64,000 nt of DNA from Schmidtea polychroa (taxonomy: Eukaryota): contig CM097887.1 in NCBI GenBank assembly GCA_044892525.1, positions 92,420,397 through 92,484,396 of the forward strand, written 5' to 3'. A program made the position numbers and the translations under genes. Numbering within the stretch: position 1 is the first letter of the stretch; every line of letters begins with the position of its first letter. Positions 3,946-27,066 of the stretch are shown in pieces. The notes under the pieces were generated by a model. That model saw nothing but the letters and a program-made list of their open reading frames with translations, was not told where the DNA came from and did no database searches.

Positions 3946-4524
3946 ATGTGTGAACCAAGCTTGCCACCGAAAGGTCTTCAGCCATGCTTCTATCTCATGC
4001 GCTGACAAAAATGCAGATATAAAGAAGCTGCAGGAGTACAACGGGGCCCTGAAGAAACGGATTGAGAACTATGAAGACACGTGGTTCTCCCCACCACAAA
4101 TGAAGGAGGAGCGAGCGAAAATATTACGGCTGGAGCACTGTCAAGACAGTCTCCTAGAAGAAAGCCGTTGTCAACGGCTGACCATCTATTCCCAGCTCAT
4201 CACCAAGAAAGCGAACTACCATCACCAAAGCCCAGTTGCAGTGGACATGGACATCAATTTCCACCTCTAATCGCTCCAATACTATCAGAATCCTCCAAAA
4301 CGAATGACAACTCTACGTTGAACGCTATTAATCCCACTTCCTTGCCCAAGAAGCGAAAACGGCCATCGCGGGCCGAGAAAAATCAGAAGCGAAGGGACAC
4401 CATCGCTGCTTTAAAGGCATCCCTGTTCGCTGCCCAATCGACTAAGGAGCGAAGTTCAAAGACCGAAGTACCAACAGCACCAACATCATTCACTTTAGAT
4501 TTCTTGCGAGAATATATATTCTAA
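3946..4524 (+). pseudogene. Uncharacterised ORF family, copy 1 (internal deletion and frameshifts)
   Basis: MCEPSLPPKGLQPCF(+4 nt)SCADKN..TWFSPPQMKE..LRLEHCQD, then FPAHH..KKRKRPSRAEK in another frame; acceptor-like ctttag at 3939-3944. Confidence 0.75.
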
Positions 4525-5395
4525 CAGATCAGCCAAACCAAATACCCGCTAATCAGTTTCGATTTTATTCATTTCAAATTGTGAAGATAGTCAATTTAGC
4601 CAGAACCCCAAATCAAAGGAGAATAATAATTTTAGTAATTAAATATTTGATTTTCATTTCTCTTTTCTCCACTCAATGATTGTAATGATTTATTTAAACA
4701 CAAGGAACATTTATTTTTTAACAATTCAATATTTTTCAATAGTTTATTCACGTAAACAACATCGTCAAATGCCAATTGAGCTGCGATAATATTCTGAACT
4801 AAACTTCCAGCCGAGCGTTTAATTAAGAATATAAACAATGTCATACTTGTTGACTAAGCCGATATGTCAAATCATTAAACATCAGATACTCTAAGTGAAG
4901 TGACGTAAATTCACGATAAATTGTAGATGAGTGATAAGATGATCAATATTTTGTCCAAGCGCTAATCAATCAATAGGGTTTCTAAATTATAATGCCCAAA
5001 AACCAACCGTAGAAATCGAGGGAATGTATTCAGCGTCAAGTCAGATTCGGTACATAACCTCAGGTTGAGGCCGACCTACACATAACAGTTATTTAAATCA
5101 ACACATATTCCTATGATTTTAAATGAAAGCGAATTTTGCTTTTATAAAAATTGGGACATCAACATGGTTGAGTAAGCGTAATCACCCCAGTTTATAAATT
5201 CACTATTGATTTTTGATTTAATTGAATTGATTCTGCCATCCATCGATCCGAAAGTCTGTCAGATAGAGTCCGATAGAGTCAGTTTGAGGAGGGACGGTAA
5301 ATCACATAGCATCAATACCTGTTGTCTTTTGTCAGTCGGGCGCGCCGGAATCAAACATGTATATCGAACAACTCTATTTTATTTTTCTTCTTAGA

Positions 5396-5803
5396 ATGTC
5401 AGACCTGAATCCTGCGCGGATAAGAACGCTACAATTCGACATTTACACACAGAGATGTGTAACTTGAAAAAACGAAGAGTTGATGGAAGGGACGTGGTTT
5501 AACCCGCTCCAAATGAAGGAAAGCAACCGCAAAATATTGAGATTAGAGCACTGTCGGGACAGTTTGCTCGAAGAGAACCGTAGTCAGCGGTTTACGATCA
5601 AGGCACAATCGGAAACGCTGCACAGGGTGTACTCAGAGGCGGAGTTGCGCAAGATGGTGGCTGAATACCCGACGACTGACATAGATAATATCTTCTCACC
5701 ATTCAGGAAAATCATCTTGTATGAGTCACGGGGCGGACACATTTTTAATTTTCTAAAGATTAGTCCACATTTGTCGAACATCCTATTTGATTGGTTTTTG
5801 TGA
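5396..5803 (+). pseudogene. Uncharacterised ORF family, copy 2 (frameshifted, 3'-truncated)
   Basis: MSDLN..SCADKNA..GTWFNPLQMKE..LRLEHCRDSLLEENRSQR..QSETLHRVY; acceptor ttttcttcttag at 5383-5394. Confidence 0.75.
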
Positions 5804-23097: not shown

Positions 23098-25500
23098 CAG
23101 CGTTTCCCAAAGTGAGTTCCGTGGAACCTTGGGGTTCTGTAGACTGATAGCAAGGGTTCCGCGAACTTTTGTAAATAAATAATTTATAAATAAAGATTAA
23201 TAAATAATTCTCGATTTTATTCGATCCAATTTAAAATTCTTTTTCAATTCTTTTTTTAAGGGGAAACCACAGTTTTTTTAATTATATTGTTTTAAAATAC
23301 GCATTAGAAATACGAATTTAAAATTAGTTTTAATAATATTTGATAAAAAGGTAAGTTATTTTTTCAATTTTTGAAAATAATCGTATGAGTATTTTTTTAT
23401 TATCGATAAATTTTGTGAATAGTTAACCCAAATTTTTGTGATGATGTAACGTTGGTTAAAACAAGGGACTTTAAAAAATAAAAACACTTCAATAAGTGCA
23501 CCTACTGCTAACAACAATACTGCTGAAGATATTTCTGAAGAACGGTTGAAGCCAAGCACTTCTACAAAAAGTGATTATTCTCAATTAATAAGACCAACAA
23601 AAGAGTATAAAAAAACGAAAATATGACATCAGTTATTTGTCGTATGGATTTACAGGTATAGCAAATATAGACACACATAAAAGCGCAGTGTGTTATTTGC
23701 AATAAAATATTGCCGAACGCTTCTCTTGTTTCAACTAAACTTAAAAGACATCTGGTAACCAATCATCCCGACCACAAAGATAAACCATTAGATTTTTTTA
23801 AACGAAAAATTGAGAAATTGGAAAAAACAAAGTTATCCATACTGAAAATTGTAAAAACAATGAAAAAGCAAATGAAGTTTCGTTATTATGCCCTGTGTGA
23901 AAAATATTGTACTGTGTATGTTTGAAGATGAAAAATCTGTAAAAAAAGATTGATATGTTGCCATCATCAAACAATACAGTTGCCCGACGTATTCAAGATC
24001 TTGCAGATGATATTGAAAAACAGCTTATTTCTCGTCTGCATTTGTGTGACGCTTATTCGTTACAACTCGATGAATCAACTGACGTAGCAGGGCTCGTCGT
24101 TTTGCTTGTTTTTGTACGTTATAATTTTGGCAAGTCAATAGAAGAAGTACAACTGGCGAAGAAAATTTCAACAGCATTAACAATTTTATGAAAAATTATG
24201 ATATTAATTGACATAAATGCATTGATGTTTGTAGTGATGGTGCAAAATCAATGGTTGGAAAAACTGCGGGCGTTATATCAAGAATTAAAAATATTGTACC
24301 AAATTATAGCAGCAGTCAGTGTGTCCTTCATACGCACACTCTTGTATGTAAGAAAATTTCTATTGACATGAAAACTGTTTTGGATGAAGCTGTTCAAATT
24401 GTTAATTTTATTAAAGCGCAACCACTGCAGTCGAGGCTCTTCAAAATTATTTGTGAAGACATGGAAAGTCAAAATACCGCTCTTCTTTTACATGCAGAAG
24501 TAAGGTGGTTGTCGCGAGGCAAAGTTTTATCCCGAGTTTTTGAACTACGGCGAAACCTCGCTATGTTTTTATCAGAACAAAAACATGAACGGTTTGCTGT
24601 ATTGACAAACTATTGCTGGCTGATGCGACTTGCATATATCACTGATATTTTTTCAAAGCTAAATTAAGTAAGCCTTAAGTGAGTGTAACAGTATTTAGTG
24701 TTAAACATAAATATCGAGATTGTCACAGAAATTAGGGTTTTGGATCAATTGTGTTGAAACTAACAATGTGAGTTGCTTTTCAACACTTTCTGATTTTTAA
24801 TGCAAAATGATTGCCTTCTGGATGAAGATATAGGTCTTGATATTATCCAACATTTACATGGATTATATGATAATCTTCAAAATTATTTTTTTGCATCCAA
24901 TAATGAATTCACGTGGGTTGAAAATACCTTTATCATCAACGAAAAACCTGATTATTTATACTTCTCGGAATATAATAACTTGATTGAAATAAAATCCGAT
25001 TAAAATACATTTTCAACACTGTCCACCTGGTAACATTTTGGGGAAATCTAATTTCGGAACATAAAGTTTTGTCTGAACGTGTAATACAGGTGCTTTTACC
25101 ATTTTCTACTACGTATTTGTGCGAAGCTGGATTTTCTTATTATACTTCTACGAAAACGAAATATCGTAATAGATTGAATTGCTCGGCAGAGCTGCGCATC
25201 CAATTATCAACAATAAAACCATATCTAACAAGGATTTGGAAGGAAAAACACAACAACACTGTTAAAACAAATAACATTCATAAGTTTAATTTTTTTTATA
25301 TTATTAATCAACAATCGAATGAATTTATTTTATTTTTTGTATGATTGTTATTTTTTTTAATAAATACTATAATTTTCTGTAATACTATAGCTCATATTAA
25401 TATTCCCGATATTAAAATTCTAAGATTTTTGTAAATAGGGTACCGTCAAAAATTTGAAATCAAAAAGGGTGCCGCAGTGAAAAAACTTTGGGAAACGCTG
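23098..25500 (+). mobile_element. hAT Buster-type element, full length, decayed transposase
   Basis: Perfect 16-bp TIR CAGCGTTTCCCAAAGT; TSD GCGTAGAT / ACATAGAT (nnnTAnnn, 6/8); fragments [34 protein letters not shown]. Confidence 0.92.
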
Positions 25501-26412
25501 ACATAGATAAACCTACTGTAAACATAAGACCCCTTTGATCTATCACTAATCTACGATGCCGGAAGTGCCATCTACCCGATTGATTTTCGGGAGCGACGAG
25601 TTATCCGCATAAACATCACAGTCAATAAAATTGGTTGTTTAGCTGTTCCTATGAGGTTTCACGAAGCGCGCAGTGAGACGAGATATTCACCATTTATCAA
25701 GAGTCAACACAATAAACATATCTGCTACTTCATTGTGGAGGCATAAACATCCGCGTAAACGATTTTGTTTCAACCGATGGGCTACAACCACGACGAGATA
25801 TTGGACCGGATACTACGAAAATCTGTTACTACCGTAGTAGAACATTTTGGTTAAATTTTCTAAATTTTCAATAAACAATAGCGTTATTAACTCTGGAGAA
25901 AATTCTCCTTAATTAATCAAAATTCTTAGTTCGTTCACTAAGTTTCGAAGGAATGATAAATCAGGATAATTAAATATAATTTTGCATGCACCCTATCGGT
26001 GCTCGACTATATATTTAACTTTTCACCTCTAAATTAATGCAGCGAGTAGCGTGTTCTGTTCATTGGATTAGTGTGATAAATGACATTATTGTCGGTTCGG
26101 TTTACTAATTTTTCTCAAAAAAAACGAGTCTCAATAGCAAATATCATTAACAACTAAAATTTCACTTTATAATAAAATTGTATTATTAAAATTCCATTGC
26201 TGTCATCCCCGGATCAGATATGTATTCCCCAATACCAAAATATCGCGTCATGCCTGTACTAAATGATAACCAAACGAGTGATGGGAAAGATCTTACATAG
26301 GTAGAACTTAACGAATAATTTAACTATCTTTAACACGTTATAGACATATTACCACCATTTAGGTAGAGGCTGAGGAAAATCAAATTTATAAATGATATAT
26401 TTTTCTGTCTAG

Positions 26413-27066
26413 ATGTCTGAACCAAATCTGCTGAAGACTGGTCGGAAGCCGTGCTTCAGCTGCGCAGATAAGAATGCTACTATGAAACAATTACGCACGG
26501 GAATTGGGGGCTTCAAGAGCCGTATTGACTTGCTCGAAGTATCGTGGTTCTCCCTGCCACAGATGAAAGAGGCAACTAGAAAGATTCTCCCGTTGGAACA
26601 CTGTAGAGACAGTATATAAGAAGAGAATCGCAGCTTACGCCTTACTATTAAGGCCCAATCGGAAACTCTACACCATATTTACTCCGAATCCGAATTGAGG
26701 AAGCGAGTCTTAGAATATCCAGTCACCTACCGAGTTAACATCTTTCCGACCCATCATTGGCCCAACGATCTCGGAAAGTCGAAGAAGTCGTCATGTGCGA
26801 GTCACGGCATAGAACTACCTTCGTCTCACATTCCCGACGTCGTATACATCGGTACTAGCACTCTGCCGGAGTCGGTGTCGACAAGTAATTCTCTTCCGTC
26901 GATTCCTACAACCTCGTCGGTTCCGTCGTCCACCGTAACTCGTTTCAAATGGAAGCGTCTGACCCGAGACGAGCGAACAAAGAGGAAACAAGATGAAATA
27001 GCTGCGGTCGGGTCCTCTCTATTTAAAGATGTCCATTGCAAGGCTAACTTGGCGCCAGACAAGTGA
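26413..27066 (+). pseudogene. Uncharacterised ORF family, copy 4 (single in-frame TAA)
   Basis: MSEPNLLKTGRKPCFSCADKN..SWFSLPQMKE..LEHCRDSI*EENRS..FPTHH..KWKRLTRDERTKRK; acceptor ttttctgtctag|ATG (AG 26411-26412). Confidence 0.75.

Follow-up and report, generated by a model that had tools for sequence, protein, structure and literature searches.

The window analyzed here is a stretch of 64,000 nucleotides from Schmidtea polychroa (GenBank assembly GCA_044892525.1, contig CM097887.1, positions 92,420,397 to 92,484,396 of the forward strand), and it holds four copies of one open reading frame (ORF). This ORF is the coding exon of a spliced gene that is under selection and lies inside both long terminal repeats (LTRs) of Burro-type gypsy elements of ~30 kb and inside thousands of solo LTRs. 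A first-pass annotation had described the copies as a family of four that is richer in GC than its background and has one fully open member, copy 3. The copies are true homologs (tblastn of copy 3 against the window, E values of 1e-37 to 9e-19, with no further match below E 3 beyond frameshifted pieces of the other three), their GC content is 0.46-0.50 compared with 0.30 across the window, and copy 3 is indeed open throughout. The copies and the LTR around copy 3 are arranged as follows:

3946..4524, (+) strand: copy 1, a decayed LTR gene of the second subfamily, with the acceptor TTTAG before the ATG at 3947
5396..5760, (+) strand: copy 2, a decayed and truncated LTR gene, with the acceptor CTTAG before the ATG at 5397
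14537 (ATG) to 13788 (stop), (-) strand: copy 3, an intact LTR gene for a 28-kDa protein of 249 amino acids
26413..27066, (+) strand: copy 4, a decayed LTR gene of the third subfamily, with an in-frame TAA at 26617
13274..17495, (-) strand: Burro-type solo LTR of element A that carries copy 3, 4.2 kb long, starting with TGTTGGGCTGAG and having sharp ends in common with other copies
17154..17189, (-) strand: predicted promoter with an inverted CCAAT box (17189-17182) and a TATA box (17160-17154), located after ~300 A-rich bases
14547..16921, (-) strand: intron of 2375 nt inside the element A LTR, with GT at 16921 and AG ending at 14547

Copy 1 has one frameshift inside the CFSC motif and another after residue ~83, has suffered an internal deletion, and is without the QSE.LH..Y part; over 68 amino acids, it is 81% identical to the protein of a family of complete elements termed F2. 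In copy 2, the CF part is gone, the frame is shifted, and the sequence breaks off ahead of the FP.HH motif. The shared motifs that had drawn attention to the copies thus reflect true homology, but CFSC is intact in a single frame in copies 3 and 4 only, as copies 1 and 2 are broken there. The acidic tail of the protein, described below, is missing from copies 1, 2, and 4, and an LTR-like end (CCCAACA) lies near copy 4 at 27298-27304. A family size of four proved far too small, since searches of the genome (781 Mb) with the copy 3 core, copy 4, and copy 1 gave 6393, 3729, and 5440 first-look candidates, which are overlapping sets with counts that are lower bounds and with 150 candidates scored per query. 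Among the best 150 of the 6393 candidates for the copy 3 core, a selection biased to intact copies, identity was 82-100%, and 144 were stop-free inside the match.

Copies of the LTR share sharp ends that are ~4 kb apart, with TGTTGGGCTGAG at the 5' end and CCCCAGCA at the 3' end, and 4-bp target duplications were found in seven of the eight copies for which both ends were available. In the solo LTR of element A, the last ~40 bases are replaced by a nested LTR, LTR B, save for the terminal 13 bases at 8095-8107. ATAT flanks the whole unit 17495..8095 on both sides, and a deletion removed the end of LTR B together with most of the final ~40 bases of the element A LTR. The same LTR type also flanks complete elements. 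A shared motif opens 2 of 50 distinct 3' flanks of LTR ends; it begins 7-8 bases past the LTR end and its complement matches the 3' end of tRNA-Pro genes in the genome, and tRNA-Pro is likely the primer tRNA. A genome search with the LTR end plus this primer-site motif returned 44 hits, compared with none for the reversed pattern, and the ORF was directly upstream of the LTR end in 39 of the 40 hits that were fetched. A primer site right behind the LTR end (TGG within 4 bases) was rejected, with only 8 scattered hits. The tRNA-Pro(TGG) genes are found in a 475-bp tandem array (G000:C1, 130.90-130.95 Mb), and their 3'-end pattern has 2190 genome matches.

All four elements of family F1 that were followed to both ends, chosen for their long open frames, are 29.4-29.9 kb in length, contain a frame of 4732 codons, and have the gene in both LTRs, with one of the 3' copies shortened by a deletion. 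The one F2 element that was followed is 30.5 kb long and likewise has the gene in both LTRs. The paired LTRs have TG..CA ends, and in all five complete elements, the LTR pairs are 99.3-99.95% identical and 4-bp duplications are present. The Pfam domains in the 4732-codon frame are, in this order, gag, CCHC zinc knuckles, a viral fusion glycoprotein region, protease, reverse transcriptase, RNase H, integrase, and ankyrin, and F1 has a RING ORF before gag and a RING-MATH ORF behind pol as side ORFs. The original descriptions of Burro/GYPSM1 are reportedly those of Jurka 2007 and Grohme et al. 2018. Burro/GYPSM1 elements have been characterized as ~30 kb long, present in thousands of copies, and coding for one polyprotein of ~4,700-5,100 amino acids with gag, CCHC knuckles, an env-like region between gag and protease, reverse transcriptase, RNase H, integrase, and ankyrin, besides MATH/TRAF and RING cargo and accessory ORFs (PMC6431247). 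The elements studied here agree with this account in size, in the domain order of the polyprotein, and in the MATH/RING cargo, and differ in that the MATH domain of F1 sits in a separate ORF behind the polyprotein. The carrier thus matches a Burro/GYPSM1-type giant gypsy element, an assignment made by the described layout. The initial proposal of a retroelement accessory gene was therefore correct, but the carrier is not an undescribed one, and the alternative of a core gene of a new mobile family had to be abandoned because the ORF has no enzyme fold of its own and the 4-kb units are solo LTRs of complete elements. Identical pairs spaced by 27 kb and 36 kb, which had been considered as LTR pairs, proved to be segment duplications. 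One shortened element (L130, G000:C2 at about 69.69 Mb) has its two LTR gene copies at a distance of no more than 5.5 kb, and the start of gag lies in between.

Strong purifying selection acts on the ORF. The polyprotein of F2, the family nearest to copies 1, 2, and 4, is 85-89% identical to that of F1, and the LTR gene proteins of the two families are 38% identical and encoded at the same place in the LTR. As blastn aligned only 46 bases between F1 and F2 LTRs, at the LTR border, the protein has been kept where the LTR DNA can no longer be aligned. The ratio of nonsynonymous to synonymous substitution rates (dN/dS) was calculated from 65 distinct intact copies out of 233 hits, with broken, short, and duplicate copies dropped. 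Synonymous sites were saturated in 1518 of the 2080 copy pairs, and dN/dS was 0.13 overall (49 pairs with dS between 0.3 and 1.2) and 0.04 in residues 10-112. Four of the five other frames, which served as controls, had dN/dS values of 1.4-2.8 and 10-13 stops per copy, and the antisense frame that shares third positions had a value of 0.19 and ~5 stops per copy. The value of 0.51 in the youngest pairs fits the drift of copies that is expected after insertion. The protein-level selection suspected in the first-pass annotation is hereby confirmed, and the opposite picture, a dN/dS of about 1 without further copies, is incompatible with the overall value and with the thousands of candidates in the genome.

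The predicted signals of a complete gene are arranged within the LTR itself. CCAAT and TATA boxes lie near LTR base 330 in all 11 aligned LTRs shown, and the pair is present in 29 of 55 LTR starts of all families, compared with 7% in shuffled sequences. All 15 LTRs aligned for this purpose have a GTAAG donor near base 572, and a YAG acceptor precedes the ATG by 0-10 nt in 63 of the 65 intact copies. Since the distance between acceptor and ATG varies out of frame, the first exon is probably non-coding. Behind the stop codon, 46 of 55 copies have a poly(A) hexamer, compared with 5.5 expected.

Splicing was assessed by genome pattern searches for LTRs that had lost the intron. One of the nine hits of the first pattern was intron-less, namely L268, an LTR of 1875 bp with an intact ORF. 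In the LTRs most closely related to it, which are 78-94% identical over the aligned segments, GT directly follows the same last bases of exon 1 at the 18 donor sites printed, and AG directly precedes the same first bases of exon 2 in four of five acceptor contexts, one reading AT. The intron loss in L268 is exact at GT..AG, and the donor (LTR base ~550) and acceptor that it joins belong to one LTR. With the second pattern, we found L268 again and, in addition, both 2063-bp LTRs of one complete F2-group element (L297/L298; 27 kb, G000:C1 at about 144.997-145.026 Mb, flanked by a GTTG duplication), which are 99.8% identical over the 1717 bases compared and whose junction is consistent to about one base only. 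As the intron is missing from three genomic LTRs, once exactly at GT..AG, the intron is spliced, and spliced LTR RNA was reverse-transcribed at least twice. The two strict patterns detected these three intron-less LTRs, and the long spacer is kept in 24 of 25 LTRs that have promoter plus ORF. Contigs of three presumed RNA runs and one unlabelled run on 10 kb of one element contained no GT..AG joint among the 15 shown of 49, with uncovered parts being uninformative. A tandem array with a period of ~2.8 kb and at least 19 units, each with promoter and first exon of this LTR type, was noticed elsewhere (L283-L288, G000:C2, 173.676-173.730 Mb).

Taken jointly, the presence of the gene in both LTRs of complete elements as well as in solo LTRs, the purifying selection, and the splicing of the LTR intron can be regarded as practically certain. 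From the promoter and poly(A) motifs, we infer a transcription start near LTR base 365 and an end near base 3850, which would correspond to an R (repeat) region of ~3.5 kb. We consider it quite probable that transcription takes this course, with a short spliced default RNA whose 3' end is set by the poly(A) signal downstream of the ORF, and that each intact solo LTR is a self-contained gene.

For the protein of copy 3, AlphaFold2 predicted helices at residues 15-39, 45-99, 177-197, and 238-247, the third of which is basic, as well as a disordered linker (mean predicted local distance difference test score, pLDDT, of 64). The predicted layout therefore comprises a coiled coil (15-99), a Ser/Thr/Pro linker, the basic helix (177-197), and an acidic hydrophobic tail. 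A homodimer model of residues 8-116 reached a score of 0.50, compared with 0.00 for the best control, and had the form of a parallel coiled coil in which the runs agreed in at least 70% of contacts and the pLDDT of the partner was at least 76. Among microbial proteins, 21 of 30 solved pairs and none of 23 single chains attained this mark; the corresponding figures for eukaryotes were 17 of 29 and 0 of 30. The model thus supports a dimerization of the coiled coil. In the predicted dimer, C12 and C15 of both chains meet at the interface, distant along the helix from H61 and C62, and the CxxC..HC zinc site envisaged earlier is not supported by conservation either, as CxxC is invariant in the copies of this genome but absent from all 10 outside homologs checked, and H61/C62 vary and HC is not kept in the outside homologs. 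If zinc is bound, the model makes a site between the two chains more likely. The earlier idea of a basic nuclear localization signal is plausible for the predicted basic helix, as is nucleic acid binding. The tail has a hydrophobic-x-x-hydrophobic-hydrophobic motif in 53 of 53 full-length tails, and its last 24 residues have a median net charge of -7 and 7 large hydrophobic residues, a composition that fits acidic activation domains. Classical export signals were sought in the tail by class patterns, each of which matched at most 3 of the 53; one reverse export pattern matched 41 of 53 when everything after residue 112 was scanned.

A profile search over 1.84 billion proteins returned 18 hits, 14 of which are fused to unrelated host domains, and the 10 outside homologs that were looked up are unnamed singletons. 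Records of such fusions (P0001-P0017, P0019) are probably chimeras of gene prediction over LTR copies in a related genome, in which gene predictors spliced the LTR gene onto host genes. The record P0018 matches the CxxC start only and was set aside as probably due to chance. The outside homologs have a common core of TW..P, R.[DE].L..E.R.Q...I..QS..L, and P.[HQ]H, behind which lies a basic helix, and one of them ends in the PVDIDE word, as does the F2 protein. Five of the 10 checked have 8-12 Arg in 17 residues, compared with a mixture of Lys and Arg in the genome copies (median of 6 R and 4 K), and one gave a weak score with Pfam REV (E value of 0.0013), below the cut-off. In agreement with the initial failure to recognize a domain, no meaningful match came from Pfam, from sequences in the PDB, from Foldseek searches of PDB structures and viral models, or from the ESM Atlas, and a set of 5.8 billion proteins contained no match to copy 3 or alignment A1 as queries. 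A search with alignment A2 among longer proteins gave one chimeric hit, and weak MBP1 and BIM1 rows (E values of 1.4 and 0.23) were taken as chance. Pfam searches with 30 genome copies yielded sub-threshold coiled-coil hits only, REV not being among the 25 families listed. No host protein family matched in the Pfam and protein-set profile searches. Neither ORF1p nor a host coiled-coil family was recovered, and gag, the other match that had been thought possible, is encoded elsewhere in the element.

The LTR also contains two candidate RNA structures with covarying pairs:

16547..16706, (-) strand: block 1, a two-hairpin element inside the intron, present in the LTR group of copy 3 only
13335..13505, (-) strand: block 2, an element near the LTR end, kept in all gene-carrying subfamilies

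In block 1 (19 copies), both partners have changed in 12 of 46 pairs and 97% of cells are paired, which was reached by 0 of 500 shuffles; the other LTR groups available gave no hit. In block 2 (41 copies), such two-sided changes affect 20 of 27 pairs and 92% are paired, compared with 73% after shuffling. Both blocks were derived from the alignments that were used for counting, and related sequences can beat shuffles without structure; in slid controls, only 33-47% were paired. Block 2 carries a second donor-like GTAAG at 13496, where GT is present in 108 of 119 copies. The poly(A) signal sits before this donor, and a TATA peak before it was not found. An Rfam search with one LTR gave no match, and the idea that block 1 could be a hammerhead ribozyme was dropped because the GAAA core is not conserved.

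As to the function, we tentatively favor the view, for which the chances appear slightly below even, that the protein of the spliced LTR gene is a nuclear self-activator of the element, similar to Tat or Tas. The short spliced LTR RNA, terminated at the poly(A) signal that follows the ORF, would be the default product. Full-length RNA would require read-through of this first poly(A) signal as well as intron retention, and the element would therefore need a switch. The coiled coil would dimerize the protein made from the default RNA, the basic helix would take the dimer to the nucleus and let it bind RNA structures or promoter DNA of the element itself, and the acidic hydrophobic tail would recruit host coactivators, so that more full-length RNA is made. 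The protein could also be provided in trans by solo LTRs. An activator is favored over a protein of the Rev or Rex type because the tail is acidic and hydrophobic in all 53 cases and export classes are matched by so few of them. The combined proposal that the R region of the Burro LTR is in itself an entire gene with two exons, coding for a dimeric regulator that binds RNA, that this regulator acts in an early-to-late switch like those of complex retroviruses, and that thousands of solo LTRs are expressible copies, is possible but rather doubtful.

A number of points weigh against the self-activator. Its role is read from the shape of the predicted protein, and transcript start and end from motifs. 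Homology to Tat, Tax, Tas, or another known transactivator was not found in the Pfam, PDB-sequence, and fold searches, and the basic helix is ~70 residues away from the coiled coil, a gap that bZIP proteins are not known to have. The promoter pattern is missing in 26 of 55 LTR starts, including all those of the B type, copy 3 itself has no canonical poly(A) hexamer, and the homologous ORF of family B, described below, has no acidic tail. One complete element moved without the intron and hence without anything inside it, and the dN/dS pairs are not independent and come from intact copies only. In addition, the purer Arg-rich helix of the outside homologs and the weak Pfam REV score favor a protein of the Rev type.

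A switch of the Rev/Rex/Rec type, in which the protein multimerizes on block 1 or block 2 by an Arg-rich helix so that unspliced read-through genomic RNA is made or exported, is on the unlikely side. It would explain why genomic RNA must keep an intron with working splice sites, in line with the small number of intron-less LTRs, and it agrees with the predicted dimer, with covarying RNA structures, one of them inside the intron, and with the Arg-rich helix and REV score of the outside homologs. Rev-like proteins reside in the nucleus, form multimers on a structured element, and are equipped with CRM1 export signals (PMC3856414). The tail, however, shows no conserved export-signal pattern, REV is missing from the families listed for the 30 genome copies, the helix of these copies is of mixed Lys/Arg composition, and block 1 is confined to one LTR group.

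We regard it as improbable that the protein is an anti-silencing or host-interaction factor, which would bind SUMO-marked or other chromatin repressors, weaken PIWI-guided silencing, or affect host cells in the manner of the remaining Burro cargo (RING, TRAF/MATH, ankyrin). By a loose pattern, 41 of the 49 F1-type copies have the xIDLT word, which resembles the consensus of SUMO-binding motifs, and three outside homologs have words like it, but only 7 of the 49 have the strict pattern, and F2-type proteins are without the motif. The element does carry RING and RING-MATH ORFs, and Burro is repressed by nuclear PIWI in planarians (PMC8532177).

It is very improbable that the gene lies in U3, as in sag of mouse mammary tumor virus (MMTV), or is reached by splicing from a far 5' leader, in which case the LTR would be an ordinary one with a long U3, solo LTRs would be silent for the gene, and the protein could be structural (an RNA chaperone or a particle component). 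The strong donor-like site of block 2 is placed as a leader donor would be, an intron in U3 would likewise be lost from both LTRs, and the internal 3' border motif precedes L268. These points are opposed by the joint in L268, whose donor (LTR base ~550) and acceptor lie in one LTR, by the CCAAT and TATA boxes near base 330, by the lack of a TATA peak before the second donor, and by the poly(A) signal in front of that donor. Finally, the view that high copy number and GC content preserve a non-functional frame or a captured piece of host sequence can virtually be dismissed. In its favor, GC-rich frames have fewer stops, the youngest pairs have a dN/dS of 0.51, and three of the four window copies are broken. 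Against it, dN/dS is 0.04-0.2 with saturated synonymous sites, the protein outlasts alignable DNA, and no host family matches; this reading is refuted by dN/dS for the lineage of the element, and single old copies decay neutrally.

The element type is known, and a coding LTR has a precedent in MMTV sag, whereas LTRs are ordinarily non-coding (PMC4667437). The sag gene lies mostly in U3, is under purifying selection, is mostly preserved in solo LTRs, and is more conserved than the LTR DNA (PMC4667437). The gene studied here shares with sag its place in an LTR, its selection, its persistence in solo LTRs, and its outlasting of LTR DNA similarity; in contrast to this retroviral superantigen, it belongs to a gypsy-type element, has its own LTR intron, is predicted to lie in R, and has no sequence relation to sag. 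The Tat/TAR, Tas, and Rev/Rex/Rem systems are comparable in having a small spliced accessory gene, a basic or Arg-rich helix, structured RNA in the LTR or an intron, and a poly(A) signal in both LTRs (PMC12789967, PMC3856414), but there is no homology, their genes are mainly outside the LTR, and a retroviral R region has 15-250 nt (PMC12789967) compared with the ~3.5 kb inferred here. Rice Retrosat2/RIRE3/RIRE8 with ORF0 (PMC3485330) and plant Ogre elements with extra ORFs (PMC6431247) are gypsy elements with LTRs of more than 3 kb and a fast-evolving, selected extra ORF without assigned function; ORF0 differs in being upstream of gag-pol and is not placed inside the LTR in the text available (PMC3485330). 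For Burro/GYPSM1, the available text names accessory ORFs but no LTR gene, LTR intron, or long R, although a figure may show an LTR ORF (PMC6431247). Our literature search likewise returned no description of a spliced gene inside Burro LTRs, and the original Burro paper, supplements, or Repbase may contain one.

A selected spliced gene that lies wholly in a gypsy-type LTR, with a likely R of 3.5 kb, would be an unusual genome design, and the gene could be the first regulator akin to Tat or Rev in these giant elements. With promoter, intron, ORF, and poly(A) signal all retained in solo LTRs, thousands of possible expression units would be present in the host genome. As knock-down of PIWI turns Burro on in planarians (PMC8532177), the LTR gene should be directly testable there.

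Further remains of Burro-type elements lie in the window:

8108..13273, (-) strand: nested 3'-truncated LTR of element B, from a more distant Burro family, breaking off inside its second ORF
6204..6632, (+) strand: Burro polyprotein fragment adjoining the protease region, 59% identical over 145 amino acids to the 4732-residue frame
21477..22507, (+) strand: Burro polyprotein fragment from after the integrase with ankyrin repeats, 56-63% identical, with an Ank_2 hit

The LTRs of family B are 5.5 kb long, belong to a Burro-type element of 36 kb, and have two ORFs in tandem. The first ORF, found in LTR B at 9190-8726 (-) with an AT-hook-like end, codes for 154 amino acids and has 1570 candidates in the genome. 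The second ORF codes for 163 amino acids and has the TWF.P..MK core and the basic helix of the gene studied here; by profile comparison (hhalign probability 84, E value of 8e-6), it is a distant homolog of the LTR gene. LTR B further contains a 65-bp tandem repeat of ~8 copies at 10227-10767. Besides the Burro-type sequences, hAT-type transposase frames, some of them long and open, are located at 18760-21100, 23100-25500, 37947-39778, and 45213-47073, and an intron-less BTB/BACK frame of 838 codons at 52023-54539 (-) is probably a host gene.

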